Below, piece after piece: positions 1,986 to 21,867 of a DNA stretch of 64,000 bases (positions are counted from its first letter, which is position 1; each line of letters begins with the position of its first letter). The notes beneath the pieces are model-generated. The model saw only the letters and a program-made list of their open reading frames with translations, had not been told where the DNA came from and searched no databases. The DNA comes from a virus. Lineage: Duplodnaviria > Caudoviricetes. Location: positions 12,440 to 76,439 of the IMG/VR virus record IMGVR_UViG_2663763407_000006; one strand, written 5' to 3'. Position numbers and translations under genes: made by a program.

Positions 1986-1986
1986 A

Positions 1987-2686: not shown

Positions 2687-2688
2687 TT

Positions 2689-2892
2689 TCAATCCCATAA
2701 TTGAACGGTTTCACGTTGGGCCGCCGGGGCCATGTCGGGCAACGCCACCGGATAACCGTGGGGCAGAATGGCCCCCAGTTCCGACAGCCCCGGATTCGCG
2801 TCATAGACTTGCTCCAGCACATCCTGTGTGCGGCCATAATGCCGCCAGCACAGTGCGTCGAGCGTGTCGCCTTGCAACGCGTTGACCTGCAT
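2689..2892 (-). CDS. X: Tail protein X (LysM-like)
   Basis: QGDTLDALCWRHYG..ANPGL..VQLWD. Confidence 0.93.
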   Translation of the reverse strand: MQVNALQGDTLDALCWRHYGRTQDVLEQVYDANPGLSELGAILPHGYPVALPDMAPAAQRETVQLWD

Positions 2893-3365: not shown

Positions 3366-3464
3366 GGCAACCTCAATATCAGAATGGGTGGGCGGTGGAC
3401 GACGGCGTTAACAAGGTAAACCCTGTTGCGGCCATCGTGCCGCCCGGCTCGGGGAGCGTTCGGG

Positions 3465-4124: not shown

Positions 4125-4127
4125 AAC

Positions 4128-5357: not shown

Positions 5358-5431
5358 AATAATCCTGATTCAGTTAAATAATATGGGTGAAATAACCAGT
5401 GGGCCGCACAGCTGGCGGCCAGTGACCCCAA

Positions 5432-6286
5432 CTAGCAGTCGGTCAATACATCGTTTTGATTGTTACCGCCGGTGGATTCCGGGCGTTTGGTCTGGCTAAA
5501 GTTTTCAGTGATAGAAAGTTTGGTTTCGAGGGACGTAACCCCTTGTTTTCCCTTTTCGATGCTCTGTTTTAGCTCCACCACTTGGTCAGCAAATTGCTTC
5601 TCAATAGAGGTAAAACGGGCCTCAATGGTTTCTCCCTGTTCCTGCACATGCACTGCCACGGCATTCACTGCCTCATGCACATCATTAAAACGGGCGTCAT
5701 CAGTTGCATGTTTGCGACTGAATACTGACTTCACCATGCTGAGTAAGGTGGCACCCGGTTCGGCCACGTCTTCAAATTCCAGTTGCACTTCAACCGCCGC
5801 AGAGAAAAAGTTATCCGGGTGAGACTTACGGGCGGCCAGTGGGTTGTGTTTGGCTTTGGCGCTGAATTCCAGCATTTCAGTGCCGAGGCTGGCGGGGTCA
5901 TCAGTCACGGCCAGCCCGACCAGATAGGCTTTGCCGGTATTGGCAAAGTTCGGGCGGATCTCCATGGAGGTGTAGATTTTCTGGCGGTCTTTATTCATCA
6001 ACACCAGCTCGTCAGTGGGGCTGATTTGGGCGAACAGTGCGCGCTTGCCGTTCAGCGCTGAATCATCTTCAATGGTTTCCGCTTTCAGACCGATCACATC
6101 GCCATAGCGGCGGAAAGTGCTGTCCGGGGAGTAGCTTTTCAGATGTTCCAGATTGATGCGGCAACCGTAGACGCGCGGATCAAATGAATCTGCCATCTGG
6201 TTGATATCGTTGGCGTCAATCACTCGTCCGTCGCAAGTGTCACCCTCAACGCCGATACGAAAATACTTAGAAACTTTCTTAGCCAT
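5432..6286 (-). CDS. O: Capsid scaffold/protease gpO
   Basis: FRIGVEGDTCDGR, INLEH, GLAVTDDPASLGTE, C-terminal LTDC. Confidence 0.95.
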   Translation of the reverse strand: MAKKVSKYFRIGVEGDTCDGRVIDANDINQMADSFDPRVYGCRINLEHLKSYSPDSTFRRYGDVIGLKAETIEDDSALNGKRALFAQISPTDELVLMNKDRQKIYTSMEIRPNFANTGKAYLVGLAVTDDPASLGTEMLEFSAKAKHNPLAARKSHPDNFFSAAVEVQLEFEDVAEPGATLLSMVKSVFSRKHATDDARFNDVHEAVNAVAVHVQEQGETIEARFTSIEKQFADQVVELKQSIEKGKQGVTSLETKLSITENFSQTKRPESTGGNNQNDVLTDC

Positions 6287-6371
6287 GAGCGGCTCCATTC
6301 AGTGTGATTATGGTTATTCGGTTCGGGGCTTAGTTTCCTGATGGATGGCGATGGCAACAACGAAAGCCAGT

Positions 6372-6389
6372 TGTGACGGGGCTGGCACA
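6372..6389. promoter_or_regulatory. Ogr/Delta-family late activator site between divergent O and P
   Basis: TGT-GACGGGGCTGGC-ACA fits TGT-N12-ACA exactly. Confidence 0.75.
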
Positions 6390-6436
6390 ACAGCGAGGAC
6401 GCGCAGAGGGTCGGGCTGGTCGCGTAGCCTAATGGC

Positions 6437-8209
6437 ATGAATACAACACCGAGCACCATCATCAGCGACCCACGGCGACAGGCGGCTTTGCTTTACTGGC
6501 AGGGCTTCTCTGTGCGCCAAATCGCAGACCAGCTAGCCCTTAAATCGCCGACTGTGCAGAGCTGGAAGAAGCGCGACGGGTGGGACGCGATTGCGCCCAT
6601 TTCCCGCGTGGAAACCAGCATGGAAGCGCGGTTGATTCAGCTCATCATGAAAGACGCCAAAGAGGGGCGGGATTTTAAAGAGATTGACCTGTTAGGCCGC
6701 CAGATTGAACGGCTGGCGCGGGTGAACCGCTATAGCCAGACCGGCAGCGAAGCGGATTTAAATCCAAATGTGGCGAACCGCAACAAAGGGGAGCGCAAAA
6801 TCCCGGATAAAAACCTGTTCAGTGAATCCGCGATTGAAAAACTGGAATCTATTTTTCACGAAAATATCTTTGATTATCAGCGTAATTGGTTTGAGGCCGG
6901 GCTAGCCCACCGTATCCGCAATATCCTGAAGTCGCGTCAGATTGGCGCTACCTTCTTCTTTGCCCGCGAAGCGCTGTTAGATGCCATCACCACCGGGCGT
7001 AACCAGATATTTTTGTCCGCCAGTAAGGCACAGGCGCACGTGTTCAAAAGCTACATTATCGACTTTGCCCGCATGGTTGACGTTGACCTGAAAGGCGACC
7101 CGATGGTGTTACCGAACGGCGCGCGCCTGTTCTTCCTCGGCACTAACGTACGTACCGCGCAGAGCTACACCGGCAATCTCTATCTTGACGAATATTTCTG
7201 GATACCCAAGTTTCAGGAACTGCGCAAAGTCGCCAGCGGCATGTCATTACATAAAAAATGGCGTACCACCTATTTCTCCACGCCGTCGAGTCTGGCGCAC
7301 AGTGCCTATCCGTTCTGGTCTGGTGAGCTGTTCAATAAAGGCCGCCGCAATAAATCCGACCATATCCAACTGGATTTAAGCCATAGCCATTTGGCGCGTG
7401 GCGCGCTCTGTGATGATGGTCAGTGGCGGCAGATAGTGACGGTTGAAGATGCACTGGCGGGCGGCTGTAATCTGTTTGACCTTAACCAGCTCTCACTGGA
7501 ATACAGCCCGGCAGAATATCAAAACCTGTTGATGTGCGAATTTGTCGACGATCAAGCGTCAGTGTTCCCGTTCGCCGAGTTACAGGCTTGCATGGTGGAC
7601 AGTTTGGAAGAGTGGGAAGATTACAACCCGTATTCGTTGCGGCCGTTTGGGCATCGCCCGGTGTGGATTGGTTACGACCCGTCCGAGGCCAACGGCGGCG
7701 ACAGTGCCGGGTGCGCGGTGATCGCACCGCCGATGGTGCCGGGCGGCAAGTTCCGCGTACTAGAGCGCCACCAGTGGAAAGGGATGGATTTTGAAGCGCA
7801 GGCCAAACATATCGAAGAGTTGACGCAGAAATATTGTGTGGAATATATCGGTATTGATGCGACTACCGTCGGCCAAGGCGTTTTCCAGTTGGTGCGCCAG
7901 TTCTTCCCTGCCGCGCGGGAAATCAAATACACCCCTGAAATCAAAACCGCAATGGTGCTGAAAGCCAAGCACACCATCAATAACGGCCGTCTGGAATATG
8001 ACACCGGCCACACCGATATCACCCAGTCATTTATGGCAATCCGCAAGACTATGACCGCCAGCGGTAAGAGTTCCACTTATGTCGCCAGCCGCAGTGAAGA
8101 AGCCAGCCACGCCGATGTGGCGTGGGCGATTATGCACGCCCTGTTAAATGAACCCCTTACCGCGACATATGGCGGTCACAGCCCTAACTTCTTGGAGTTT
8201 TACGGATGA
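6437..8209 (+). CDS. P: Terminase large/ATPase subunit gpP
   Basis: N-terminal HTH, KSRQIGAT, YLDEY, STP, IGYDP nuclease motif, HAD. Confidence 0.96.
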   Translation: MNTTPSTIISDPRRQAALLYWQGFSVRQIADQLALKSPTVQSWKKRDGWDAIAPISRVETSMEARLIQLIMKDAKEGRDFKEIDLLGRQIERLARVNRYSQTGSEADLNPNVANRNKGERKIPDKNLFSESAIEKLESIFHENIFDYQRNWFEAGLAHRIRNILKSRQIGATFFFAREALLDAITTGRNQIFLSASKAQAHVFKSYIIDFARMVDVDLKGDPMVLPNGARLFFLGTNVRTAQSYTGNLYLDEYFWIPKFQELRKVASGMSLHKKWRTTYFSTPSSLAHSAYPFWSGELFNKGRRNKSDHIQLDLSHSHLARGALCDDGQWRQIVTVEDALAGGCNLFDLNQLSLEYSPAEYQNLLMCEFVDDQASVFPFAELQACMVDSLEEWEDYNPYSLRPFGHRPVWIGYDPSEANGGDSAGCAVIAPPMVPGGKFRVLERHQWKGMDFEAQAKHIEELTQKYCVEYIGIDATTVGQGVFQLVRQFFPAAREIKYTPEIKTAMVLKAKHTINNGRLEYDTGHTDITQSFMAIRKTMTASGKSSTYVASRSEEASHADVAWAIMHALLNEPLTATYGGHSPNFLEFYG

Positions 8210-8970
8210 AATCAATGATTTTTACTGCTGGTCAAGTTGACGGCCTGCGCGAACATTTCGAAAACTCGGCCTTTGACTATCAAAAGACGTGGTATCGGGT
8301 GGGGCAGACCGGCGTAGCCCGCAATCTCACCAAATCGCGGCAGATTGGGGCCGACTGGCTGGTCGCTTTTGAAGCGTTACTGGATGCCATCACCAGCGGC
8401 CGCAATCAGCATTTTTTAACCTGCACCAGACCAAGCGCCTTGAATACTCGCGCCTATATTGCCGAGTTTTGCCGGGTAGTTGGGGTAAACGTGCCCCCAT
8501 TCTCGCCGAGTAACATGCTACTAGGTAATGGCGCACTTATCGCCTTTCACGGTGAATACAGTCACGCCGCCGCTCATGCCGGGAATGTGTACCTGGGTGA
8601 ATATGCATGGGCTAAAAACCCACGTTCAATACTGCAAATGGCTAAGGGGATGGCAATGCACAAAAATCATCGTTTAACACTCTATACCACGCCCTCCCGC
8701 TCACATACCGCGTTCAAGATTTGGAATGGATCACTGCGCCGCCCACGAAAAACAGTACCGGTTATTCACACCGATAACGGCGTTTACTGTGCTGATGGCG
8801 TATTTCGTCAATCGGTTACGGCTGATGATGCCATTCAGCAAGGTTGTACATTATGGGAAAAGGATTGGCGTAAATATTGGCTGGAAAAACACATGACAGC
8901 GGATGATTTCAGGTTCTTATATTTGTGCGATTGGTCACAAGCGGCAAACAATGCAGAGGAAGTGAAATGA
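8206..8970 (+). CDS. Truncated gpP ATPase-domain paralog with altered Walker motifs
   Basis: FDYQ..KSRQIGAD..EALLDAITSGRNQ..GNVYLGEY..TTPS aligns with adjacent gpP. Confidence 0.88.
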   Translation: MKSMIFTAGQVDGLREHFENSAFDYQKTWYRVGQTGVARNLTKSRQIGADWLVAFEALLDAITSGRNQHFLTCTRPSALNTRAYIAEFCRVVGVNVPPFSPSNMLLGNGALIAFHGEYSHAAAHAGNVYLGEYAWAKNPRSILQMAKGMAMHKNHRLTLYTTPSRSHTAFKIWNGSLRRPRKTVPVIHTDNGVYCADGVFRQSVTADDAIQQGCTLWEKDWRKYWLEKHMTADDFRFLYLCDWSQAANNAEEVK

Positions 8971-10004
8971 GTAAGCGCAAAGGCCGCAAGGCATTAAGCC
9001 GCCCGGCAACCAATCACACCGCCAGCCAACAGCAGCCGGTTGAGGCGTTCACCTTTGGCGAACCCTCCGCCGTTCTCGACAAGCGGGAAATACTGGATTA
9101 CATCGAATGCACCGGCAACGGAAAATGGTATGACCCGCCGATTAGTTTTGACGGGCTGGCGCGCAGCTTCCGGGCGGCGGTGCATCACAGCTCGCCGCTG
9201 TATGTGAAGCGCAATATTCTGGCGAGTACCTTTATTCCACATTCGATGCTCAGTCAGCAATCATTTAGCCGCTATGCACTGGATTATCTGGTGTTTGGCA
9301 ATGCGTTTTTAGAGGTTCGCCGCAATCAACTTGGCGCGCCACTGCGACTCGACCCCAGCCCGGCCAAGTACACCCGCCGGGGGCTGGAAAAAAATTGCTA
9401 TTGGTTTGTGCAGAACTGGAAAAATGAACACCTGTTTGAAGCTGGTAGCATTTTCCACCTGATAGAACCCGATATCAATCAGGAACTTTATGGCCTGCCG
9501 GAATATCTCAGCGGCTTAAATTCGGCTTGGCTCAATGAAGCGGCCACACTGTTCCGCCGCAAGTATTACCAGAATGGCGCTCACGCGGGATACATCCTGT
9601 ATATGACCGATGCGGCGCAAAGTAGCAGCGATATTGAGGCGATGCGTAAAGCGATGCGCGACACCAAAGGGTTAGGCAATTTTCGCAACCTGTTTATGTA
9701 CGCGCCCAACGGTAAAAAAGACGGCATCCAGATTTTACCGTTGAGCGAAGTCGCCACCAAAGATGACTTTTTTAATATCAAGAACGCCACCCGCGACGAC
9801 CTGCTCAGTGTGCACCGGGTGCCACCGCAGATGATGGGGATTATTCCCAACAATACTGGCGGTTTCGGTGACGTGGCGAAAGCCTCACAAGTCTTTGTCC
9901 GCAATGAGTTAACGCCGTTGCAAGAACGATTGAAAGAGGTGAATGACTGGATAGGGCAAGAGGTGATCCGGTTCAAGCCTTATGAACTGATAAGCGAGGA
10001 TTGA
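8967..10004 (+). CDS. Q: Portal protein gpQ
   Basis: EAFTFGEP, HHSSPLYVKRN, YGLPEY, YYQNGAHAG; start ATG 8967. Confidence 0.95.
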   Translation: MSKRKGRKALSRPATNHTASQQQPVEAFTFGEPSAVLDKREILDYIECTGNGKWYDPPISFDGLARSFRAAVHHSSPLYVKRNILASTFIPHSMLSQQSFSRYALDYLVFGNAFLEVRRNQLGAPLRLDPSPAKYTRRGLEKNCYWFVQNWKNEHLFEAGSIFHLIEPDINQELYGLPEYLSGLNSAWLNEAATLFRRKYYQNGAHAGYILYMTDAAQSSSDIEAMRKAMRDTKGLGNFRNLFMYAPNGKKDGIQILPLSEVATKDDFFNIKNATRDDLLSVHRVPPQMMGIIPNNTGGFGDVAKASQVFVRNELTPLQERLKEVNDWIGQEVIRFKPYELISED

Positions 10005-10005
10005 T

Positions 10006-10395
10006 ATGGGACGTAAAGCGCCAACACCACCGCCATATAACCCCGGCGATATTGTGAAGAGGCCCGCGCCACCGCCTCAGCCACCGCAAAAATGCGAAAC
10101 GAAACGAGTAATAATTATGGAAACTCAAACTAACCAGAAAATCACAGCGCAACTGGCTGTTGATATTCTTAATCAAGCGTTGTCACTTGACCCGGATTGT
10201 ATTACTGCGCTGGTATCGCATCGAATAGAGTGTAACGCGACGTTAGCCCATGACTCTGAGGTGATGTGTGGTATGTCTAAAGACAAATACATGACTGGCG
10301 CGCTTGGCGTTATCAACTCACTGGTTACAGACGGCTTTGTCGCTGCACTGTATACAGATGAAAAAAAGCTGGCAGCGTTTCAAGTTTGCAAATAG
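10006..10395 (+). CDS. Hypothetical protein, Pro-rich N-terminus
   Basis: ORF with GAGG SD directly after Q, followed by terminator. Confidence 0.6.
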   Translation: MGRKAPTPPPYNPGDIVKRPAPPPQPPQKCETKRVIIMETQTNQKITAQLAVDILNQALSLDPDCITALVSHRIECNATLAHDSEVMCGMSKDKYMTGALGVINSLVTDGFVAALYTDEKKLAAFQVCK

Positions 10396-10419
10396 TTAAT
10401 TGATATTTTTGAATATCAT

Positions 10420-10443
10420 AGCCGCCGAGCCGGGCGGCTTTTT
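10420..10443 (+). terminator. Intrinsic terminator ending P-Q operon
   Basis: AGCCGCC-gagccg-GGCGGCT followed by T run. Confidence 0.75.
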
Positions 10444-10606
10444 CATGCCCGAAAAGTAGCGATTCCAACACCTCGCGCCATACGCCACCAGACGCCCGTC
10501 ACGCCATCACACCCCATGAACACGCATTGATTCCCAACTCAACCGAACGCAGCACCACGGCCCGCCCAAGATCGATAAATAAGGGTATCAAAACCCTTTG
10601 CGCGCA

Positions 10607-10625
10607 ATGCTATCCCCGCCACGCC
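10607..10625 (-). other. cos site (19-bp P2/186-type cohesive end)
   Basis: Minus strand GGCGTGGCGGGGATAGCAT, close to P2 cos GGCGAGGCGGGGAAAGCAC. Confidence 0.9.
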
Positions 10626-10801
10626 TGCGCGCTTTGCAGGTCGCTTTTCATGCACTTGCATGATCCATTGAGATCCGCGCCGGAACTGGCGCTAACAGGG
10701 GAAATAGGGGAGGGGATCAACATGCGGAATCATGCACTATATGCATGCATGACCCAAATCACGATGGGAGGCCACACATGCATTATTTTATGGGGGATTT
10801 A

Positions 10802-10996
10802 TCAGTGCGATTTTTTACCGTCGGCGTTATAGAAAATCTCATCATAATTTTGGCTCGTGACTATCTGGCTGGTCAGGTCTGATATCAACGACATGGCGAC
10901 AAGAAACTCGCTATTACTACACTGTGCAACTTGCGAAACTTCAGCAATAAACTGAATTCTTGATAGTGTTAATTCTATTTTATCAACGGGTTTCAA
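10802..10996 (-). CDS. Tum-like SOS antirepressor (short form)
   Basis: LSRIQFIAEV...C...VAMSLISDL resembles phage 186 Tum N-terminal domain; LexA box upstream; A-cos position. Confidence 0.65.
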   Translation of the reverse strand: MKPVDKIELTLSRIQFIAEVSQVAQCSNSEFLVAMSLISDLTSQIVTSQNYDEIFYNADGKKSH

Positions 10997-11012
10997 TGCA
11001 GGCTCCTTATTA

Positions 11013-11032
11013 TACTGTATTTATATACAGTA
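11013..11032. promoter_or_regulatory. LexA (SOS) box
   Basis: TACTGTATTTATATACAGTA, CTG-N10-CAG near consensus. Confidence 0.92.
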
Positions 11033-11133
11033 TCGAGTAAAACAATATTCAGGTCAATACTGTATATGGCTGTTTAGTTAAATCAGATGCTTGTGACGCG
11101 CTATATGTTGTAAAAGTAATCCGCCGTGACGCG

Positions 11134-11493
11134 TCACAATGGTTTAACTGCACTAATTAATAAGCTGTTGATACCTTTGGTTTGCCAACACGCCGCTTCA
11201 CCCCGTAAACAACACCCATTTGGATCGCCCGGCAAGGTATCGCCACATTTGCCACAGCGTTGTTTACCCAGCTCGGCTTGTTGCTCTTTTAGTCGCTGGT
11301 TATCTTGTCGAATCAGCAGCGCGATATATTCCGGTAAATCGTAAGCTGGCCGGAACAGACGCCGGGCGGTCATGCCCTCGATTAGCATGGCGAACTCTTC
11401 TGGCTCCAGTCGGGCGCGAATTTCATTGATACCGGCGGATTTATCACGCTGGCGCTGTGCCTGTTTACGGGTAGTGGCGTCGGTTTTAGTCAT
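11134..11493 (-). CDS. Hypothetical protein with CxxC/CC/C cluster
   Basis: GAGAGG SD before ATG 11493; RCGKCG..CC..CW. Confidence 0.7.
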   Translation of the reverse strand: MTKTDATTRKQAQRQRDKSAGINEIRARLEPEEFAMLIEGMTARRLFRPAYDLPEYIALLIRQDNQRLKEQQAELGKQRCGKCGDTLPGDPNGCCLRGEAACWQTKGINSLLISAVKPL

Positions 11494-11512
11494 GGTTTTC
11501 CTCTCAGGTAGA

Positions 11513-13798
11513 TTAATCATCGAATTCCGGCCAGTCGAACAAGGCCGGATATTGAATAACTGTGTCGTTAAACGTCATTGAAGCCCCACGCGCTAACGAT
11601 TCCAGCTCCCAACGTTGGGCGCTGATATCTTTCAACAGTAAATCGTTGCGGATTTGGGGGATGCGCTGGCGTTCTTCGCGGGTTAAACGGGCGGATGGCG
11701 CAATAAGTCGGCCCTTGGTGGGGTCATAACTGCGTTGCATCTTGCTTATCGTTGGCTGTTTCTCTTTAACGCGGGCCACAATCGCCCTCACGGCGGCAGT
11801 GTCCGACCAGTCAATAACGGCGTCCGGTGGGTATTCCATCGCCGCCACAGGCGTTTTATCCTGCCCGTTGGGGTCATTTGGCGCTTGGGTGTTTCCACCT
11901 AACCCACAGTTATTGACAGAACTCCGAGGCGCGCCAGAGGCGCTTTTCAAAGTCAAAAGCTCAACGTCAACGGCACCAGCAACGATGCGCCATTGGGTTG
12001 TGCGGGTTTCATGAATATGGTCAGCGCCCAAGTGAGGCGCATAGATACCGACGACTTTCTGCACTTCTTCATCGTAGGCGTTGAGTTCATCGGCGACGCG
12101 CTTGGCTAACCGGACGGTCTGATTGCCGCAATTGGTGCCACCTTGCGCCATGATGTAGGCAGCAAAATCACCCTCATCAGCCGCATGGCGCACAGCTTCC
12201 ACGGTTTCGTCGAAAGTCTCGGCCAGACTAATAGAACGGATACGGCGACACTCGCGATAGACTCCCATGGAGGGAAGCCCAATCGGGCGAAACTGAGGGA
12301 TGCGCCACGTTGCCGCCCACGCCGTCACCGCCGCAGCGGAATCGGTTAGCAGCTCACCGGTTTCATGGTCACGTTCACCCTCAAGTGCATAGCCGTCGAT
12401 ATTCTTGGCAATGTATTTAGCGATGTAGCCAGCGGCTCCGCCTTTGTTCATGTGCTTACACTCAAAGCGATATTTAGCGGCACCGCGCTCGTCACCATCT
12501 TCTTTCAACGCATAGCGGCGCATGATGTCGATTACCTGCTGGCGCTGGCGGCGTTGGCAAAACAGCATCATGTGCCAGTGCGGCGTACCGTCATGGTGTG
12601 GCTCAACTACGCGCATTCCGTAGACACTTAATTCGTTGTCTTTAAAGGCGGTGCGCATCTTGCTCCAAATCTTGCAGAGATAGCGCTGGCCGTCTTTGGG
12701 TGAATAGGCTTCATCATTCCACTTATGATTAAGCTGTACTTTCTCGTTGTCACCTTTCCCAACAACGCGAGTCGGGTGATATTTGGACGGGGTGGTGATG
12801 GTCAGGAACATACCGACGTGCTTTTGCCCGGCAGCATATTTTTCCGTGAAAGCGATGGTGTTCATTAGCTCCATGCGGCGAATTTCTGGATTAGAAATAC
12901 TCGCCATCACCTTATCAATCAGGTCGATGCGCTCACCGGTTTCAATATTTTCTAACTGGCAGCTTTTGAGATATTCCAAATTAGACTGGCGACGGGCGAA
13001 CACTTCGCGGATAGCCTGCTTACTGGCATAAGAAGATGCTGAAATATCCCGGCTAACATTACCGACAGCAATCAATAACGCTTCCCGCCAGCGGGTTCGC
13101 TGTGCTTTGAGTTTGCGCTCCCACCATTCAGGATTAACCAGACGTGATAGGCTGGCGATAGCAGAGGTGATATCTAACCGGCCTTTCAGGTATTTGCGCC
13201 AGTGCATCGGCGTGATATTAAAAGCGCGCGCCATTCTGGCAAGACCACCGAATATGCGTACCTGTGTATCAGCCTGCAATAAAACGGCCCTGTCACCCTG
13301 ATTAGCCTTAATGCATTCATCACAATGATGGTTGTACGCCACCATTAGCTCATCACCGATTTTGCGGGCAAAGCGGCGCAGCTCTTTATCATGCATACCC
13401 GCTAAGCTGGCATAGGTTGGGGCATCAGTGGAAAAGCTCATTGATGCACTGAGGCGCATAACATTTTTGCTATTGACCACCTGAATACGCGGCCAGATAC
13501 GCTGGTCAAAGACAAACACCAGCCATTTATTAGCATCGTTTAGCCCTTTATTGGCTAACAGGTATTGATAGCGAGAAATGAACTGGCTACGCAGGAAATG
13601 CGGCAGATTATGGATATTGGCTAAAACGGCTTGCCCCTGAATCAGTTGTTCACGGGTAAGCGGTCTTTGAATGCCGGGCAAGGTTTGGCGCGGTTTGCTG
13701 CCGGGATAGGCATAAGTAGGAACAGCAGCGCCGCTGCCCGGATAAGGCAACGGCGGAGTTGGGGTTATTCGTCCGCGTAGGTTATCAATGCTGGTCAT
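11513..13798 (-). CDS. A: Rolling-circle replication initiator gpA
   Basis: EPHHDGTPHWH (HUH) and YIAKYIAKNIDG tyrosine motif. Confidence 0.96.
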   Translation of the reverse strand: MTSIDNLRGRITPTPPLPYPGSGAAVPTYAYPGSKPRQTLPGIQRPLTREQLIQGQAVLANIHNLPHFLRSQFISRYQYLLANKGLNDANKWLVFVFDQRIWPRIQVVNSKNVMRLSASMSFSTDAPTYASLAGMHDKELRRFARKIGDELMVAYNHHCDECIKANQGDRAVLLQADTQVRIFGGLARMARAFNITPMHWRKYLKGRLDITSAIASLSRLVNPEWWERKLKAQRTRWREALLIAVGNVSRDISASSYASKQAIREVFARRQSNLEYLKSCQLENIETGERIDLIDKVMASISNPEIRRMELMNTIAFTEKYAAGQKHVGMFLTITTPSKYHPTRVVGKGDNEKVQLNHKWNDEAYSPKDGQRYLCKIWSKMRTAFKDNELSVYGMRVVEPHHDGTPHWHMMLFCQRRQRQQVIDIMRRYALKEDGDERGAAKYRFECKHMNKGGAAGYIAKYIAKNIDGYALEGERDHETGELLTDSAAAVTAWAATWRIPQFRPIGLPSMGVYRECRRIRSISLAETFDETVEAVRHAADEGDFAAYIMAQGGTNCGNQTVRLAKRVADELNAYDEEVQKVVGIYAPHLGADHIHETRTTQWRIVAGAVDVELLTLKSASGAPRSSVNNCGLGGNTQAPNDPNGQDKTPVAAMEYPPDAVIDWSDTAAVRAIVARVKEKQPTISKMQRSYDPTKGRLIAPSARLTREERQRIPQIRNDLLLKDISAQRWELESLARGASMTFNDTVIQYPALFDWPEFDD
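11904..11933 (-). other. Replication origin (nick site) inside gene A
   Basis: Minus strand CGCGCCTCGGAGTTCTGTCAATAACTGTGG, nearly identical to P2 ori. Confidence 0.85.
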
Positions 13799-14057
13799 AA
13801 GACTGCGTTAATATGTGCTCAGCGATTTGGTTAAGCAGCTCCGCCGCCTCTACGCCGTTCAATTCTCGGTTTAGAATTTGATTAGCTATCTCATCCAGCC
13901 GAAATGAAACCAGTGCGGCCTGATTCTTTCTTTCATCCTTGCGAGCTTCATTTAGCATTAGCTCAATTGATTCAACTGATATCATTGTGATTGAACGGTC
14001 ACTACCCGGCTTGGCGGGGTCTACGCCTACCCATATATTTTGAGCTGTATTCTGCAT
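13785..14057 (-). CDS. P2-like early protein (DUF2732-like)
   Basis: LNEARKDERK..LNGVEAAELL. Confidence 0.8.
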   Translation of the reverse strand: MQNTAQNIWVGVDPAKPGSDRSITMISVESIELMLNEARKDERKNQAALVSFRLDEIANQILNRELNGVEAAELLNQIAEHILTQSYDQH

Positions 14058-14122
14058 AGATAATTCCTGCTTTTAGGCAATACGAAACCCGGCGAGTGAA
14101 ACGCCATATATTGCGACCTTGG

Positions 14123-14434
14123 TTAATTAATAATATTCAGTGTGCAGTCATCATTACTGACAAACGACGGCAGCGAACGAGTAAACTCAATTAAGTAGTT
14201 CAGCGTTTCAACAACAGATTCTCTTTCTGCAGGACTTAATTCTGAAAACTGCATATTCACATGGCGACTTTTTAACCCGGCATGAAAACAAATTGTTTTA
14301 CGCAAATGTGTCGGTGACTTATCAAAAGCCTCCTGAGTAACATTCTTTCTATTACGGAAATGCGTTTCTTTTAATTCAGCAATACGAGCAATACCCGTCA
14401 TTCTTAATTTTTCAGCTTCCGTTAATTGCAGCAT
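14123..14434 (-). CDS. Replication protein B-like (DUF5347)
   Basis: GIARIAELK..ICFHAGL..F.ELS..ER; position. Confidence 0.7.
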   Translation of the reverse strand: MLQLTEAEKLRMTGIARIAELKETHFRNRKNVTQEAFDKSPTHLRKTICFHAGLKSRHVNMQFSELSPAERESVVETLNYLIEFTRSLPSFVSNDDCTLNIIN

Positions 14435-14445
14435 ATAACCCCCAA

Positions 14446-14631
14446 TTAACGCCCGAACAGACGGCGTAATATTGGCGTCTTCTTTTCAGAGGACAATTCT
14501 TGTAAAAGCGCCTTTTGATTACTTCCCGGCTTCCAGCGCTGGCCGTTCTTCAACTCCAGCACACCGTGACCAAAATGGCGTAGGTTTACCGGGCTTTGCT
14601 GTTTTAACAATGGGGCAATAGAAATAATCAT
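14446..14631 (-). CDS. Fil-like protein (DUF2724)
   Basis: SIAPLLKQQSP...FGHG..ELKNGQRW.P. Confidence 0.75.
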   Translation of the reverse strand: MIISIAPLLKQQSPVNLRHFGHGVLELKNGQRWKPGSNQKALLQELSSEKKTPILRRLFGR

Positions 14632-14640
14632 AAAGACACC

Positions 14641-15150
14641 TCAACTCAAACCAGCGACAGCACTCAAGCCGCTAATAACATCAACAGTTGAAGCAAGCGC
14701 AGGGGTTGATTGAATGCGCGCCTGCACTGTCAGGCCAATTAGTGACAGGTGGCGAATCGCAGTATTGACGCTATCCAGCAGAGCAGATTTGCTGAATGCT
14801 GTTTTGTGATTGCCTTGTACCGCAGCGGCAGCAATAGAACCCACGGCGGCAGTAGCATGTAGCGCATAAGTCGGGATATTGCCGGGGCAGGCTTCATTGA
14901 CTGGCACAGATGGCATGCAATTGATTTGTGACAGCAGGCCGTCTAATAACGTTGGGTCTTCGGTCAGGTCGGTGATGCGTAACAGCTCGTCTACGGTCAA
15001 ACGGTGCGGCTGGTCAGGATTCAATTTGTTACGCAGAACTTGCGCCGCTATTCCTGCGTTTGCTGCCAGCTCGACTAAGTTGTGTTTTAACGCAAACTGG
15101 CGGCAGGCGTTATCAAAGTGCGGATGTTTGGACACTGAAAAATCAAACAT
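14641..15150 (-). CDS. cII: 186-type CII activator
   Basis: MFDF..SKHPHFD.AC..LRNKLNPDQPHRLT. Confidence 0.92.
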   Translation of the reverse strand: MFDFSVSKHPHFDNACRQFALKHNLVELAANAGIAAQVLRNKLNPDQPHRLTVDELLRITDLTEDPTLLDGLLSQINCMPSVPVNEACPGNIPTYALHATAAVGSIAAAAVQGNHKTAFSKSALLDSVNTAIRHLSLIGLTVQARIQSTPALASTVDVISGLSAVAGLS

Positions 15151-15472: not shown

Positions 15473-16084
15473 ATGCATATGCGAGTATGTAAAGGGGTTT
15501 TTACGAGCGTGGATGATAAAAAACTAAGCGGCGGGATTGCAGCAGTAGAAAGAATGATGCAAGCCTATGGTTTTAAAGTACAAAGAGAATTAGCGGCTTA
15601 TCTAGGTGCAGGAACGGGAACAATCAGCACTTGGATCAAACGTGATTACTTTCCGGGCAAAGAGATTGTGCTCTGTGCTTTAGAAACAGGTGTTTCATTA
15701 CATTGGCTTGCAACTGGTGAGGGTGAACCTCAGGAACCGGTTAAACCTGCCGCACATGAAACCGCACAATCTATTGCTCATAAAAGCCTTGAAGATGGCT
15801 TGCTGATAGATGCATCCCCCATATTGCTAGATTCAGAGTTACTGCCCGTTCAGATTATTGAACCTGAATTAATTTCGTTCCCTAATGAAAAACGTTATTT
15901 TCTGGTCGAACGTCAATTTAGAAATGTTGCTGACGGTCTTTGGTTGATTGAAAAAGCAGGTGTAACCTCGATTAGCAATATTGCTCGTTTACCGGGTGAT
16001 GTATGGCGTATCAATGATGTCAATTGGCCGGTTAGTGAAGTCAATATTCTTGCAAAGGTAGTCGGTGAAATTAAAGGGTATTAG
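15473..16084 (+). CDS. cI: 186-type CI repressor (start may be GTG 15509)
   Basis: ERMMQAYGF..TISTWIKRDYFP..CALETGVSLHWLATGEG. Confidence 0.9.
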   Translation: MHMRVCKGVFTSVDDKKLSGGIAAVERMMQAYGFKVQRELAAYLGAGTGTISTWIKRDYFPGKEIVLCALETGVSLHWLATGEGEPQEPVKPAAHETAQSIAHKSLEDGLLIDASPILLDSELLPVQIIEPELISFPNEKRYFLVERQFRNVADGLWLIEKAGVTSISNIARLPGDVWRINDVNWPVSEVNILAKVVGEIKGY

Positions 16085-16147: not shown

Positions 16148-17200
16148 GTGGATATAATAAAAATTCAAGATCAAATAGATAAAAATAGAAAGACAGTCTC
16201 ATTTGATAGCTATGATATAACTATCAAACAAGTTTATGATATGTTAGCCGAAGGTATTATAGATATATCACCAGAATATCAAAGGCATTTTATTTGGGAT
16301 GAAACGAGACAATCACAACTTATTGAGTCAATTTTTCTCGGCATACCTGTTCCAAGCTTATACATGGCAACAAACAGGGATTCATCTTGGGACGTTGTTG
16401 ATGGGGTTCAACGCCTATCGACTATTATCAACTTCATTGGAAGCGAAGATGAACCTGCTTTAGAGGGACATTATAATCAATTGACATTAGAAGGATTGGA
16501 AAAGTTAGATTCAATGAATGGACTTACTTTTGATGAAATGCCAAAGCAACTGCAGATTATGTTTCTAACTAGGTCTATAAAACTGACAGTATTAAATGAT
16601 CGTAGTGATTTTTCTGTCAGATATGATCTCTTTGAAAGGTTAAATACTGGAGGGGTTATACTACACCCGCAAGAAATCAGAAACTGTGTATATACGGGGG
16701 AATTTAATGATTTCATAAAGAAATGTGCAGAAAATGTTAACTTTAAGGCGGTAGTTAAGTTGACTGACAATGCTAAAAAGACAGGGAATCTCGAAGAGTT
16801 AGTTCTTAAGTTTTTTGCATATTATGAAAACTCGATTGGATTCACTCATAGTGTTAAAGGTTTTTTAAATGACTATATGGAGAATAAAACCACATCGTTT
16901 AAAAATAAAAAAAATCTTGAAAGTATCTTTACTGAAACCTTTGAGTTTTTGAATAATAGTCTCCCTAATGGAATCGTTCGAGGTAATAGAGTAAACATCA
17001 CGCCAATAGTTCTTTATGAGGCTATTTCTGTCGGGACTGCAATGGCATTAAAAGTTAAGAATAAAAATGATTTGAGTAAAGACAGATTGATTAAATTACT
17101 TAATAGTCCTGAATTGAAAAAACATACAACGGGAGCAACTAACTCTCGTAAGGCACTTACAACTAGAAATGAAATAGTTAAGGGTGAGCTAATAAAATGA
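16148..17200 (+). CDS. DUF262 (GmrS/ParB-like) protein, putative defence
   Basis: PEYQR..W..LIESI, VVDGVQR, FERLNTGG, EIRN; AT-rich. Confidence 0.9.
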   Translation: MDIIKIQDQIDKNRKTVSFDSYDITIKQVYDMLAEGIIDISPEYQRHFIWDETRQSQLIESIFLGIPVPSLYMATNRDSSWDVVDGVQRLSTIINFIGSEDEPALEGHYNQLTLEGLEKLDSMNGLTFDEMPKQLQIMFLTRSIKLTVLNDRSDFSVRYDLFERLNTGGVILHPQEIRNCVYTGEFNDFIKKCAENVNFKAVVKLTDNAKKTGNLEELVLKFFAYYENSIGFTHSVKGFLNDYMENKTTSFKNKKNLESIFTETFEFLNNSLPNGIVRGNRVNITPIVLYEAISVGTAMALKVKNKNDLSKDRLIKLLNSPELKKHTTGATNSRKALTTRNEIVKGELIK

Positions 17201-17901
17201 TTTTTACACCGCTGAGAGATTCTGCTCGAGTTAGATTTAATGACGTTATGATTTATATCAACTATGTTGAATCTCTTGAGCCTACTGTAAATGGAGCCCA
17301 TAATAATATAATACAAGAAACTCCCCCACAAGTAAAAATGTTTAGAGGGCTTTTTTACGTGCATATTTATTCTTATGTTGAAAAAACAGTGAATGACTTA
17401 CTTATCAGAACAATTGCATCTATAAAAGAAAAAAACATATGTAATAAGCATTTTATTACTCAATTTAACTCCATATCACTCCACTCAAAAATGCAGTCAT
17501 TTAAACAATCAAAAAACACGCTTTACTTAAGCAAAGCGTGCGATGTCTTTAGTGGAGTTGAGGGGGAGTCAGTATGTACAGTAGCAGAAACTGTATTTTC
17601 TGAGTTTTTACAAAATATATGGTATAAAACTATTGCTGAAGTTTTAGCTGCATTCGGTATTACAAATTTCACAAGAACACCAATAGAAATAGCGACGATT
17701 GATGAAGTGGTTAATAAAAGAAATGCAGTTGCACATGGTAGGCTTTCAGCTGTAGAAGTAGGAGAAGCACACAACTGTTCTGTCCTCAGGGATAAAATGA
17801 ATATTATCGATAATCTGGTAAACGAACTAATTGACACATTTGAGTTGTATGTAATAAACCTACAATGTGTAAAAACTGAGTTTAGGGTTTTATATATATA
17901 A
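17197..17901 (+). CDS. HEPN RNase (RiboL-PSP/MAE_28990-like)
   Basis: IYSYVE and RNAVAH (RxxxxH) motifs; ATGA-coupled to DUF262 gene. Confidence 0.85.
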   Translation: MIFTPLRDSARVRFNDVMIYINYVESLEPTVNGAHNNIIQETPPQVKMFRGLFYVHIYSYVEKTVNDLLIRTIASIKEKNICNKHFITQFNSISLHSKMQSFKQSKNTLYLSKACDVFSGVEGESVCTVAETVFSEFLQNIWYKTIAEVLAAFGITNFTRTPIEIATIDEVVNKRNAVAHGRLSAVEVGEAHNCSVLRDKMNIIDNLVNELIDTFELYVINLQCVKTEFRVLYI

Positions 17902-17928: not shown

Positions 17929-18960
17929 ATGGCAGTACGGAAGTTACCCAACGGGAAGTGGGTCTGTGATTTTTACTCAGATGGCCGTGATAGTAAGCGG
18001 GTTAGGAAAACCTTTGTTACTCGCGGTGAGGCGTTGCGCTTTGAACGTGAACAATTAGCGCAACGTGGTGATCTGGATATTGACTACACACCGGCAGAGA
18101 CTGCCGCACAGAGGTTAAAAACATTGGTCGGTCAGTGGTATGAACTCCACGGGCGCTCTTTGAGTGACGGCAAAGCAAGATTAGATAAACTCAATATCCT
18201 GTGTGATAACTTGGGCGATCCTGCTGTTGCTGATTTTGACCGGGAAGTGTTCGCCAAGTACCGCAAGCAGCGTTTAGCCGGTGAGTTTAGTCGTAAGCCA
18301 AAACACGGAATCGTTAAACCGCCAAAAGAGGCAACGGTCAACCGTGAACATGCCTACCTACGAGCTGTCTTTAATGAGTTGAAAAGGCTAGGACATTGGA
18401 ATCATGCTAATCCGTTGGATGGTGTTAGGTTATTTCGTGAAAGCGAAAACGAATTAACTTTTCTTTATGAAGACGATATTAAACGTCTGCTGCATGAGTG
18501 TGACAGTTCCAGCAACAAAGATCTCGGTATCATCGTTCGTATCTGTCTGGCTACCGGCGCGCGCTGGAGTGAAGCGGAGCAACTAAGACAAGCTCAGGTG
18601 ATGCCAAATAAAATTACTTATATCAACACCAAGAGTAAAAAGAACCGAACAGTCCCTATTTCTGCGGAACTGCATAAACTGATTCCAAAAATGAAAGGGC
18701 GCTTATTCGTCAATGCCTATGATGCATTCGGCCAAGCCATTGACAGGGCTAAATTGGAGTTACCTACCGGCCAGTTAACCCACGTTCTACGCCATACTTT
18801 CGCCAGTCATTTTATGATGAACGGGGGTAATATATTAGTGCTACAACAAATCCTCGGGCACTCCACTATCCAGATGACCATGCGCTATAGCCACTTTGCA
18901 CCGGATCATTTAGAAGCTGCAGTGAGTTTGAATCCATATGATCGCATTTCGAGAAATTAA
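17929..18960 (+). CDS. int: Tyrosine integrase (P2/186 family)
   Basis: TGARWSE, HVLRHTF, ILGH, TMRY. Confidence 0.96.
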   Translation: MAVRKLPNGKWVCDFYSDGRDSKRVRKTFVTRGEALRFEREQLAQRGDLDIDYTPAETAAQRLKTLVGQWYELHGRSLSDGKARLDKLNILCDNLGDPAVADFDREVFAKYRKQRLAGEFSRKPKHGIVKPPKEATVNREHAYLRAVFNELKRLGHWNHANPLDGVRLFRESENELTFLYEDDIKRLLHECDSSSNKDLGIIVRICLATGARWSEAEQLRQAQVMPNKITYINTKSKKNRTVPISAELHKLIPKMKGRLFVNAYDAFGQAIDRAKLELPTGQLTHVLRHTFASHFMMNGGNILVLQQILGHSTIQMTMRYSHFAPDHLEAAVSLNPYDRISRN

Positions 18961-18982: not shown

Positions 18983-19297
18983 ATGAAATGGTTGGAAATT
19001 TTTGTAATAACTGCGTCGAATGAACGAATTATGACGTTGTTGGAATATCTAGTTCTCGGGGTAATGCTGGCTGTGTTCTGTAGCAAGGTACGAGAAATCT
19101 GCCGGTTGCCAGAATATGCAGCCAGAATGAAGCCTGTTATTCCTGATTATGAATGGATCACATACGGGGAGCGGGTCAGTAATGAGGCATTACCATTAGC
19201 AGTTGGTTTGACCAATGGGGAGCAGATCAAAGTGACTCTGAGATATTTATCAATCCAATGGCGATTTAGCATTCGGGCGATAACACTGAAAAGTTAG
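18983..19297 (+). CDS. Possible hypothetical protein
   Basis: 104-aa ORF filling the gap after int; no motif recognised. Confidence 0.3.
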   Translation: MKWLEIFVITASNERIMTLLEYLVLGVMLAVFCSKVREICRLPEYAARMKPVIPDYEWITYGERVSNEALPLAVGLTNGEQIKVTLRYLSIQWRFSIRAITLKS

Positions 19298-19387
19298 ACG
19301 CTGACAGAAACTTTTTAATTCATAAATACGCTCTCAGTCATTAAAGCTTGTGTAAAATAGTTAAAAAATAAGCAACGGAATCTAGTA

Positions 19388-20527
19388 ATGGCTAATAATA
19401 AAAGAGACGATTTCAGCGCCAAAACGATTAGAACTCTACAGGAGAGAGCCGGATGTCGATGCTCTATGCCTGGCTGTGGAGCAGTGACAATTGGCCCCAG
19501 TGAGGAGTCCTCAGAAAAATCTATTAATCTCGGCGTAGCAGCCCACATCTGTGCGGCAGCCCCTAAGGGGAAACGCTACGACCCAAATATGACTACTGAA
19601 GAACGGAGGCATATAGAAAACGGCATTTGGTTATGTGTATTGCATAGCGTTTTAATCGATCGAGATGTCATCAGTTACCCAGTAGAAGTGTTGCACGCCA
19701 TGAAAATAGCTCATGAGGAAGCGATTAAGCTCGAAAATAGGTCAGGGCAAGGATTTCTTCAACTTTCTGATTTTATTGCAATAGGTCCAGATATTGTAGG
19801 GCTTGGTGAACTACTGGGAAGTACCGGTAACAGTTGGTCCATTAGAATTGATCACTTCGTTACTGGCGATATATTAAAGCTCATTAGTTTCATTGAGAGT
19901 TATGAAGAGCAGGAATTTTTGGATCGATACCTCATTATTAATGCACTCGGTGATGGTCGCCAGCTTGCCGCCGCACCTTCATGGCGTAAAGATGGAAAAT
20001 CCATTGAGCTAAAATGCATAGTAAAGAACCGATTTCCACGTAAAAATGTAAACAATTTAGGCTCTACGCTTGCTACGAACGCCTCGAATGACATCTACTT
20101 CATTAATGGGAACTTAGCAGTCGTGAGTGGGATTAAAGCCTTACCTCAAAAAATTAGAACGACTCTTTCCTTGATTCAGGGGGAGTCTCCATTTTTCCCT
20201 AAGGCTGGAACTCGTCTCAAAGAGTATTTTGACGAATTTGAGGATTCACCATGGCTTTTACGCTGGATTAAACTTGAAGTCATAAGACAATCATGCATAC
20301 CCCTCTACGATAAAATTAATAATACAGAGTCGACTCCACTTGAGTGCGTTACTAAAGTTATCGACGTTGTGCCAATATCTAATACTAAAAAAGGTAACTG
20401 GTGTGAGATTAAGTTTAAGCTGGAAGTTGAAGGGATAGGGATTTGGGAAGAAATCCTTTCAATTTGCGTACCGAAGGGGGATATACCTCCTAAACCTAAA
20501 GGTTGGGAGCTATTGGCGATTAAGTAA
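19388..20527 (+). CDS. HNH-type Zn nuclease fused to gp25/GpW-like C-terminal domain
   Basis: RCSMPGC..AAHI..NGIWLCVLH..LID; C-terminal GNLAVVSG..LPQKIRTTLSLIQGESPFFPKAGTRL. Confidence 0.75.
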   Translation: MANNKRDDFSAKTIRTLQERAGCRCSMPGCGAVTIGPSEESSEKSINLGVAAHICAAAPKGKRYDPNMTTEERRHIENGIWLCVLHSVLIDRDVISYPVEVLHAMKIAHEEAIKLENRSGQGFLQLSDFIAIGPDIVGLGELLGSTGNSWSIRIDHFVTGDILKLISFIESYEEQEFLDRYLIINALGDGRQLAAAPSWRKDGKSIELKCIVKNRFPRKNVNNLGSTLATNASNDIYFINGNLAVVSGIKALPQKIRTTLSLIQGESPFFPKAGTRLKEYFDEFEDSPWLLRWIKLEVIRQSCIPLYDKINNTESTPLECVTKVIDVVPISNTKKGNWCEIKFKLEVEGIGIWEEILSICVPKGDIPPKPKGWELLAIK

Positions 20528-20656: not shown

Positions 20657-20710
20657 TTTAAAATCCCTCGGCTTATGGCTGTGCGGGTTCAAGTCCCGCC
20701 CCGGGCACCA
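20657..20710 (+). pseudogene. leuZ: 3' half of tRNA-Leu(UAA); attachment-site duplication
   Basis: TTTAAAATCCC, long variable arm, GGTTCAAGTCC, CCA end; D-arm and 5' acceptor strand absent. Confidence 0.92.
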
Positions 20711-20754: not shown

Positions 20755-20777
20755 AACCGCCGAGAGGCGGTTTTTTT
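20755..20777 (+). terminator. Intrinsic terminator after tRNA fragment
   Basis: AACCGCC-GAGA-GGCGGTT plus T run. Confidence 0.85.
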
Positions 20778-20850: not shown

Positions 20851-21867
20851 TCACTTTTTCTGACCGCCTACCACTGGCACAATTTCTGTTTTCCTATCAT
20901 ATCTTGCTGTTTGGGCTGTATTCTTGTGCCCTGAAATGGCTTGCTTCTCTGCGAGGGTTCCCTCTAAGTCTGATATTCCCTTGGCTTTTAAATCATGAAA
21001 CGTGAAATCAAAGTCCAATTCGGAAAATGTTTTTGCGGCCAATAATTTTGCGTTGCGCCACCGACTATTGAAACCATCTCTTGTGTAGCCATGCCCAGAC
21101 CGCTGATGTAGTACATAAATACTGCTCACACCTGGAGCGATTTCTATTCCATCTGCAATTTTGATGGCCTGCTGTAATCTTTCCGTCCATGCCTTGATCT
21201 GTTTCTTTCCTGTTTTCCCTTGCTGTATAAATACCCCGGCATCTATTAGCTGTGACTTTTTTAAGGCGAGGATGTCTGCTTGCCGAGCGCAACAAAGATA
21301 GGCGAGTTCCATTGCCGCTTTTACAATCGGCGGAGCTACGTTGTAGAGAGCGCTATATTCAGCGTCAGTAATGTATCGTTCCCTGCTAACCTCTTTAAAT
21401 TGCTTAACACCCTTGCATGGGTTGCCTTTTACCATTCCCCTCTCATAACCCCAACGATAAACCCGCGATAGGAAAGTTTTCTCACGGTTTGCCTGTGTTC
21501 TACTGGCAACCCCGCGTCTATCCATATATTTCCTGATATGTTCAGGTTTTATGTTGTCTGGTTCCATTTTCCCGAAAACTGGTAATACTCTAAGTGAATA
21601 TTTGCGGTAGTCTTTCTGCGTCTCAACAGCTAACTCATTAAAATCAACAGAGCGGAAAAACTGTTCAATGAGTTTATTCAAGTTGGCTTTTTCTAATGGC
21701 TCATTATTTATTTTTTCGTAGCATGACCATACTTGAGAAATAGGTGCATCCAATGGGCATAGCGATATTGAGCCACCGCGGGCGGGGTGGAATTCATATT
21801 TCGATTTTCCACGATACACCCGAGGTGGTAATGCCGTGTCTGCGGCGTTCTTGCGTTTACCGGCCAC
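20851..21867 (-). CDS. int: Tyrosine integrase
   Basis: CCARQADIL, FHDLKAK, SGHK, TARY. Confidence 0.93.
   Translation of the reverse strand: MAGKRKNAADTALPPRVYRGKSKYEFHPARGGSISLCPLDAPISQVWSCYEKINNEPLEKANLNKLIEQFFRSVDFNELAVETQKDYRKYSLRVLPVFGKMEPDNIKPEHIRKYMDRRGVASRTQANREKTFLSRVYRWGYERGMVKGNPCKGVKQFKEVSRERYITDAEYSALYNVAPPIVKAAMELAYLCCARQADILALKKSQLIDAGVFIQQGKTGKKQIKAWTERLQQAIKIADGIEIAPGVSSIYVLHQRSGHGYTRDGFNSRWRNAKLLAAKTFSELDFDFTFHDLKAKGISDLEGTLAEKQAISGHKNTAQTARYDRKTEIVPVVGGQKK

Follow-up and report, generated by a model that had tools for sequence, protein, structure and literature searches.

We describe here a gene that very probably encodes a single-gene anti-phage sensor-effector, predicted to be carried by a P2-like prophage as cargo between its integrase gene (int) and its attachment site (att). 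The gene lies in a 64,000-nucleotide stretch of DNA from a tailed virus (Duplodnaviria; Caudoviricetes), referred to below as the window, which comprises bases 12440–76439 of the 76-kb provirus record IMGVR_UViG_2663763407_000006. Its 379-amino-acid product has three parts in succession: an HNH nuclease head of the type found in Cap5, an effector of CBASS (anti-phage signalling based on cyclic oligonucleotides); a middle domain; and a domain with the predicted fold of the gp25-type proteins known as sheath initiators. A defence sensor-effector is the best reading of this gene because of the architecture of the protein, the hotspot context of the gene, and the exchange of effectors among related proteins. 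In particular, we favor the explanation, at a probability of roughly 0.5, that the middle domain and a domesticated gp25-type domain form a module that would sense a foreign contractile-tailed phage, and that the HNH head, as the effector, would degrade DNA.

An initial annotation of the window, made from the sequence alone, had proposed that an HNH nuclease fused to a gp25/GpW-like domain acts as a tail-sheath-sensing defence protein. The position that it gave for the open reading frame (ORF) is exact (19388–20527, plus strand, with an ATG start and 379 codons for amino acids), and all of the motifs that it quoted are present in the protein, most of them on conserved columns of an alignment of 50 homologues with 41–84% identity to the 379-residue query (alignment A1). 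The domain layout stood in part; the HNH and gp25-like assignments were correct, and the middle domain had been overlooked. Homologues can be aligned with the query from residue ~5 to residue ~365, and a proline-rich tail at the C-terminus is kept just in the closest of those in A1. Moreover, the protein is matched over its full length by phrog_34329 (E = 3.7e-102), a family whose function is unknown, and for the full 379 residues AlphaFold gave a model with a predicted local distance difference test score (pLDDT) of 86.5 and a predicted template modelling score (pTM) of 0.79. (A shorter coding sequence of 312 amino acids, annotated in accession OM140653, was rejected; it would remove the conserved catalytic histidine, and homologues align from residue ~5.)

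The predicted fold of residues ~226–362 is confirmed as that of gp25. With the query alone as input, residues 239–300 matched phrog_975, annotated as 'baseplate protein' (4e-5), and a further match was obtained to phrog_120, annotated as 'baseplate wedge subunit' (1.2e-4). When the 50 homologues were scanned singly, the Pfam family PF10934 (Sheath_initiator) was found at E ≤ 1 in 31 of them, with a best value of 1.7e-5, and precomputed PF10934 matches were present in 33 of 120 homologues among the matches listed. A profile of 93 sequences (A3) searched against the PDB returned 20 matches at E ≤ 1, of which 12 were sheath initiators or gp25-like baseplate proteins (two of these assigned by name only), 6 were HNH or Cap5 entries, and 2 were unrelated. 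The matches included phi812 ORF61 (9euf_L, 1.8e-6), E217 gp34 (8env_H, 1.9e-4), 'gp35 sheath initiator' (9b45_G, 2.1e-4), and Pam3 gp21 (7yfz_X, 3.8e-4), with weaker ones to proteins such as pyocin PA0617, Afp9, and Pvc9. Structural comparisons agree. A model of residues 120–379 (pLDDT 94.6, pTM 0.91) gave 23 Foldseek matches at E ≤ 1e-3 in BFVD, nearly all of them GpW/gp25/DUF2634 baseplate proteins with template modelling (TM) scores of at most 0.72; in the PDB the model resembled T4 gp25 (5iv5_BD, probability 0.99, TM 0.61), 2ia7 (probability 0.97, TM 0.66), and Pam3 gp21 (probability 0.90, TM 0.61). The gp25/GpW-like character of the C-terminus, which the initial annotation had proposed to check by profile and Foldseek searches, was therefore upheld.

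Within the sensor portion of the protein the best-conserved stretch is the signature LPQ..LS...GE.......G.R (residues 252–276), which is common to true sheath initiators. Likeness to the gp25 fold is already present in public annotation, there without a functional reading; NCBI records of the Escherichia coli homologue carry the names 'DUF2634 domain-containing protein' (five records) and 'GPW/gp25 family protein' (one record). In one source a homologue bears the name 'phage baseplate assembly protein W'.

The N-terminal head was correctly likened to Cap5 in the initial annotation. Every one of the 16 PADLOC matches to the protein falls within residues 3–117, and they include the CBASS 'Effector Endonuclease' (2.7e-19) and SAVED_HNH (1e-16) profiles, of which positions ~1–110 alone are matched. 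The profile of the family matched the Cap5 chains 8ysq, 7rwk, and 7rwm in the PDB at 1e-15 to 7e-11, and Foldseek aligned the AlphaFold model with Cap5 8fmf_A over 108 columns (E = 1.1e-6). The recognizable motifs are C25-x4-C30, A51-H53-I54, N78, C83-x2-H86, and D91/D93. The predicted nuclease site looks intact in its catalytic and zinc residues because H53, N78, C83, H86, and D91 are invariant in alignment A1, where at least 90% of the rows also retain C25 and C30. The top PADLOC match was PDC-M68A (4.1e-26), again by way of the HNH head (profile positions 4–109 of 253). Running PADLOC, as the initial annotation had suggested, thus recognized the head, whereas PADLOC holds no model for the C-terminal module. 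(Shedu was considered and rejected; the SduA profile matches in the N-terminal HNH part only.) Note that a 435-residue 'HNH endonuclease', PDB 9om4_A, is the top solved relative of the head (3.2e-17), above the Cap5 entries.

The protein has a Cap5 effector head, yet it does not belong to CBASS. No SAVED domain was found in the protein; the SAVED_HNH profiles end at ~110, and residues 120–379 fold as the other, two-domain module. Likewise, a search of the 76-kb record for a CD-NTase (SMODS) gave no match. The head, too, seems to be a module that has been shuffled. In provirus collections, 12 of 60 loci encode the full-length protein and 48 share the HNH head only. In those 48 loci (for example, L049 5971–6783 and L060 5998–6744) the head is 37–57% identical over residues ~1–115 and precedes short, unrelated C-terminal parts, in proteins of 248–270 amino acids. 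The PDC-M68A match is confined to the HNH head in these head-sharing prophage proteins as well.

We searched residues 120–379 against 1.84 billion representative sequences and obtained 325 matches at E ≤ 1e-3, 205 of them at E ≤ 1e-10. The best 150 of the 325 were classified by means of profiles cut from A1. HNH, middle, and gp25-like domains occurred together in 57 of the 150, and the middle and gp25-like domains without HNH in 64; another 24 had the gp25-like domain only (mostly short sequences that are probably fragments), and 5 had other partial architectures. The middle domain always accompanies the gp25-like domain in this census, and the two are modelled as a single rigid unit (pTM 0.91) in which the middle domain packs against its neighbor. 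They form one conserved module of 240 residues. The middle domain contains a near-invariant G-D-G-R loop and has no relative that could be found by Pfam, by Foldseek (PDB and BFVD), or in the ESM Atlas. Mean pairwise identity within the HNH subfamily is 0.54 for the head, 0.45 for the middle domain, and 0.49 for the gp25-like domain, such that by sequence the sensor domains appear somewhat more variable than the effector.

Elsewhere the same module carries other heads. An extension of at least 80 residues was present in 40 non-HNH proteins, and 37 of these were scanned (P0202, P0222, and P0225 were left out); 27 of the 37 had another Pfam domain and 10 had no recognized domain. The heads found were TIR (11 proteins, one also with SEFIR and one with AbiJ_NTD5), adenylate/guanylate cyclase (5, of which one, P0128, lies C-terminal to the module and below the cut-off), metallophosphatase (2), protein kinase (2, one below the cut-off), EAD5 (2), and one each of GGDEF, caspase, trypsin with SLOG, PNP_UDP_1, and a helix-turn-helix (HTH) domain of the XRE type. 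At least 10 types of non-HNH effector or signalling domain are therefore fused to the module. PADLOC sees the TIR and PNP heads as defence-type, without a model for the module itself. (The XRE-type HTH head is that of P0126; the two proteins with EAD5 adaptor heads, P0239 and P0262, have a further C-terminal extension of ~190 residues.) That the module bears heads other than nucleases speaks against a selfish or housekeeping HNH protein, that is, a homing endonuclease or an HNH protein associated with packaging. HNH genes are frequent in phages; here, however, the HNH belongs to the type of the immune effector Cap5, a DNA-binding module is absent, and the terminase genes are distant, and we regard this explanation as barely credible.

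The heads appear to have been exchanged repeatedly. In a tree of 102 module sequences built with FastTree (49 rows without both domains, or with a module of fewer than 200 residues, were excluded), the head labels need at least 15 changes, and the well-supported branches alone force at least 8 changes for HNH and at least 5 for TIR. FastTree is a quick method; 35 of 99 forks had no support, and there were flags on long branches. Within the terms of this tree, effectors are shown to be interleaved, and the pattern points to repeated exchange of heads. The exchange, together with the invariance of the HNH residues, indicates that the head is under selection. This bears on the possibility that the protein is an assembly poison, in which the gp25-like domain would replace the initiator of an invading phage and stop polymerization of its sheath while the enzyme plays a secondary role. 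The full gp25 fold is kept (TM ≤ 0.72 to true initiators), and the carriers are prophages that compete with other phages, as such a poison would suit. However, a head under selection is superfluous for a pure poison, and the carrier's own tail would be poisoned as well. We therefore consider an assembly poison improbable.

No other gene appears to be tied to the module. Fifty pattern matches in a scan of species-representative genomes led to 33 loci, which belong to Proteobacteria, Acidobacteriota, and Myxococcota. When the 310 ORFs within 5 kb were clustered, families were common to at most 3 of the 33 loci, and those within single genera; no neighbor gene was conserved across the 33 cellular loci. 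Exchangeable heads combined with the lack of a partner gene are the hallmark of an immune sensor that works as a single protein. The small ORF between int and the gene was considered as an antitoxin or partner and rejected; it has no Pfam, PADLOC, or PHROG match, is not annotated in the related phage vB_YenM_31.17, and is not conserved in the 33 loci. Among 117 flanking ORFs at the 33 loci, transposases, integrases, and resolvase were the Pfam families encountered most often, and PADLOC identified a type IIG restriction enzyme and DRT5 in the flanks as well as Wadjet JetC/JetD (2), Dsr1 (2), and AbiD (2). Tail or injection-system families were absent from the 25 most frequent of 81 and the 25 most frequent of 136 families. 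The distribution is patchy. In the order of one carrier, 1 of 401 sampled genomes had the module, namely the carrier itself, and a single-sequence search of the 76-kb record with the module recovered its own gene only.

The genomic position of the gene is that of accessory cargo. The left ~33 kb of the record is a P2-like prophage, with its D, U, T, E, FII, FI, H, I, J, and W genes situated to the left of the window, and the gene stands between int and a tRNA-like fragment that begins ~130 bases past its stop codon (Table 1), as the initial annotation had placed it. The fragment, which we take to be tRNA-Leu-like, is present as a single copy in the 76-kb record, and ARAGORN found no whole tRNA at the site. 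A near-identical Yersinia phage, vB_YenM_31.17 (OM140653), encodes a protein with 99.5% identity, and its deposited genome ends at about window position 20660, at the tRNA-like fragment. The gene is therefore the last of the P2-like phage, sits in the int-att slot, and is packaged with the phage. The description of the gene as AT-rich also holds; its GC content is 42.2%, as opposed to 52.5% for the prophage core (1–15000) and 47.2% for the window.

A homologue with 47% identity is ORF2 in the 'Z-region' of phage P2-EC46. Among 5426 complete E. coli genomes, 6 carry this E. coli allele; its place in strain 4621, the Z/fun slot, is on the opposite strand, with the sheath gene to one side and the tail-fibre assembly gene to the other. 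A megablast search of the E. coli genomes with the gene from the window gave no match. According to a 2026 paper in Nucleic Acids Research (PMC13586616), the defence hotspots of P2-like phages include the int-att slot (3% of P2 systems) and a slot among the tail genes (16%); the hotspot concept was set up by Rousset et al. 2022 (PMC9122126). The slot of the gene and that of its homologue are both published P2 defence hotspots (PMC13586616, PMC9122126). The two hotspots, the lack of a partner gene at 33 loci, and the at least 10 other head types together leave the defence reading of the initial annotation better supported than before. (In E. coli the homologue adjoins a gene of the Lit phage exclusion family, at L002 2118–3119 and L102 7631–8632, both on the minus strand, with PADLOC Lit at 5.5e-11 and a matching name in the NCBI prokaryotic annotation pipeline, PGAP, such that two defence genes stand side by side in the Z/fun slot.)

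Table 1. Coordinates of the gene, its predicted domains, and nearby features (positions of the window)
Feature	Position	Strand	Basis or remark
CI repressor	15473-16084		context gene of the P2-like prophage
P2-type tyrosine integrase, upstream of the gene	17929..18960	+	Int_N 9e-30, Phage_integrase 1.5e-23
104-residue ORF between int and the gene, maybe no gene	18983..19297	+	no family match
Gene for the HNH / middle domain / gp25-like protein, 379 residues	19388..20527 (including stop)	+	ORF listing, ATG start
Residues 1-119, Cap5-type HNH nuclease with a long helix (99-119) at its end	19388..19744	+	PADLOC, PDB profile, Foldseek
Residues 122-222, beta-rich middle domain with the G-D-G-R loop (188-191)	19751..20053	+	AlphaFold secondary structure
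Residues 226-362, gp25/GpW/XkdS-type sheath-initiator fold	20063..20473	+	PHROG, PF10934, PDB profile, Foldseek
Residues 363-379 and stop, proline-rich C-terminal tail	20474..20527	+	alignment; pLDDT 74-86 in models
tRNA-like 3' part ending in CCA, attachment-site copy closing the P2-like prophage	20657..20710 (approximate)	+	sequence
Terminator-like hairpin after the tRNA-like fragment	20755-20772		
Second tyrosine integrase	20851-21867	-	

The same genomic evidence bears on whether the protein is a structural or delivered one, that is, a baseplate part of the P2-like virion, of a tailocin, or of a contractile injection system loaded with a nuclease toxin. Its gp25 fold and the location of the E. 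coli gene between tail genes would fit such a role. However, the gene in the window is at int-att, outside the tail cluster, where a W of the prophage itself stands with V, J, and I; the E. coli gene is on the opposite strand in a known accessory slot; the 25 most frequent families of the 117 neighbor ORFs at the 33 loci include no tail or injection family; and cyclase, kinase, HTH, and EAD5 heads are not delivered toxins. A structural or delivered protein is thus very improbable.

According to the explanation that we favor, the protein would be inactive in an uninfected lysogen. Upon expression of the late genes of a foreign contractile-tailed phage, a partner would dock on the gp25-like module, the likeliest partner being the baseplate wedge (of the gp6/gp7 or J/I type) or else sheath subunits. 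Multimeric assembly would then gather several copies of the protein, the clustered HNH domains would switch on in the way that Cap5 does in passing from a dimer to a tetramer, and the active HNH would degrade DNA and abort the infection. Most of the enzyme types that are attached to the module are activated by proximity or oligomerization or produce signals, and the titles of PDB entries for Cap5 refer to an apo dimer and an activated tetramer. The analysis shows what the domains are, that the catalytic residues are intact, where the gene sits among the hotspots, that it lacks a partner gene, and that effectors have been exchanged repeatedly on the module. We infer protection, activation by clustering, and a tail component as the trigger, and clustering because of these two observations, namely that the heads are mostly proximity-activated or signal-making and that Cap5 is a dimer when apo and a tetramer when activated. 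The idea that tails are sensed is attractive in that the sensor is best conserved where it carries the signature of true initiators and the baseplate would offer a ready multimeric template. Nevertheless, we place the odds of a trigger from the contractile tail of the infecting phage (a baseplate or sheath protein) somewhat below even, because the middle domain may be the true receptor and because the gp25 fold has been reused in IraD. The broader proposal that the module is a pattern-recognition receptor for contractile tails, in which co-assembly with wedge or sheath would cluster any attached head (HNH, TIR, caspase, cyclase, kinase, and so on), is more tentative still.

Several observations weigh against sensing of foreign tails or against parts of the evidence for it. 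First, IraD of E. coli is a gp25-fold protein that binds a partner that is not a tail protein and, given this precedent, the fold does not dictate the ligand. Second, it could be the middle domain, in which the G-D-G-R loop is conserved, that actually binds the ligand. Third, the carrier prophages encode W, J, I, and sheath proteins of their own, which are expressed on induction, so that a tail sensor has either to tell self apart or to tolerate being fired. (The initial annotation had already noted that the resident P2-like tail would have to be ignored, and the prophage does contain its own W, J, I, and sheath genes.) There is a weak hint, at the level of sequence profiles, as to how self might differ from non-self; the family is PF10934-like, whereas the resident W, a 116-amino-acid protein encoded between V and J left of the window, belongs to PF04965 (2.5e-15), and similarity between the profiles appears negligible. 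In particular, a PF10934 search of the 76-kb record found nothing at E ≤ 1, and hhalign aligned residues 245–286 of the family to GpW 16–57 at E = 0.032 and a probability of 1.6%, which is too weak for use. Finally, some of the searches gave less than might be hoped. The PF10934 scores are below the curated cut-off of 32.9 bits wherever shown, a Pfam scan of the 379-residue query gave nothing at E ≤ 0.1, Foldseek with residues 120–379 found nothing in the PDB at E ≤ 1e-3, and a promoter scan of 19298–19387 found no sigma-70-like site on the plus strand, with counts no higher than in shuffled sequence.

These considerations lend some weight to an alternative in which the protein is the same single-protein defence but the module has been repurposed for a ligand other than a tail, such as another phage protein, a guarded host protein, or a small molecule bound at the G-D-G-R loop. 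Head exchange, hotspot location, and the absence of a partner gene imply a sensor without naming its ligand, and the middle domain, which is conserved, always present, and of a fold without relatives, would suit this alternative, as would the occurrence of 'IraD/Gp25-like' names among the PDB matches to A3 and the BFVD matches, given the non-tail partner of IraD. Moreover, the resident P2 tail would not need to be ignored. On the other hand, conservation of the sensor is greatest in the sheath-initiator signature, which is easier to understand if the ancestral contact has been kept, although stability of the fold could explain it too. We consider a non-tail ligand rather unlikely.

Other genes in the region also resemble cargo. 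Between CI and int, at 16148–17901, lies a second defence cargo with a GC content of 32–33%, in which a GmrSD_N protein (PADLOC NsnA 1.9e-71, PD-T4-2_A 5.8e-51) overlaps a HEPN_RiboL-PSP protein. The corresponding slot of vB_YenM_31.17 contains an 'ATPase' and a hypothetical gene, which indicates that the slot swaps its cargo. In the Z/fun slot of the prophage itself (from sheath gene FI to tail-fibre gene H), left of the window, is a gene on the plus strand (L098 6808–8772) for a 654-amino-acid protein with Acyl_transf_3 (3.4e-28) and SGNH (2e-21) domains, which looks like a lysogenic conversion gene of the O-antigen acetylase type. Past the tRNA-like fragment, the tyrosine integrase gene on the minus strand indicates that a second integrated element abuts the P2-like prophage.

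The module provides a handle on hundreds of uncharacterized proteins (325 representative clusters at E ≤ 1e-3), and heads that range from nucleases to second-messenger cyclases predict new signalling defence systems. Sensors have been described that respond to the capsid, portal, terminase, tail tube, or tail chaperone. In a survey of STAND receptors (PMC13581612), tail sheath and baseplate hub are listed among the targets that still lack a sensor. If the explanation that we favor is true, a gp25-derived sensor would fill part of this gap, would be a clear case of a viral structural protein turned into immune bait by host or prophage, and would define a widespread immune family that detects a highly conserved interface of contractile injection machines. 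It would also pose the question of self and non-self, namely how a contractile-tailed prophage carries a tail sensor unharmed. Among open-licence papers and preprints (supplements excluded) we found no description of a gp25- or sheath-initiator-like sensor fused to immune effectors.

Compared with known systems, the protein shares with CBASS Cap5 an N-terminal HNH domain that is related in sequence and fold and that keeps the catalytic histidine and the Cys/His zinc site, and it probably shares activation by higher-order assembly, as we suppose for the 379-residue protein. It differs from Cap5 in that it has no SAVED domain, no CD-NTase in the 76-kb record, and no conserved neighbor, and in that its sensor would be a protein-like module rather than a nucleotide receptor. 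PDC-M68A of PADLOC has in common with it the HNH head only. With the sheath initiators gp25, GpW, TssE, and XkdS (PF04965, PF10934) the protein has in common the fold, the N-terminal signature, and TM scores of 0.6–0.72; those proteins, however, are small, stand alone, and are encoded in the row of baseplate genes, whereas here the domain follows a nuclease and an additional domain in one protein, is encoded at int-att, and has PF10934 scores below the curated cut-off wherever shown. IraD is an instance in which the cell has reused the gp25 fold as a protein-binding domain, and it is a small stand-alone regulator without an effector. The plan of a single polypeptide with an exchangeable effector and a sensor of a late phage protein is also that of pSlfn5, a prokaryotic Schlafen that senses a tail assembly chaperone, as described in PMC13056530; DSR2, which senses the tail tube, and the Avs/STAND receptors (PMC13581612) follow the same single-polypeptide sensor-effector plan. 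In contrast to pSlfn5, DSR2, and Avs, there is no nucleoside triphosphatase, Ig-like, or solenoid sensor here, and the part predicted to sense is itself copied from a structural protein of phages. The gene would be of a known kind, a prophage-borne single-protein sensor with an exchangeable effector, and what is new is the sensor, a module of middle and gp25-like domains that is shared among many types of effector.

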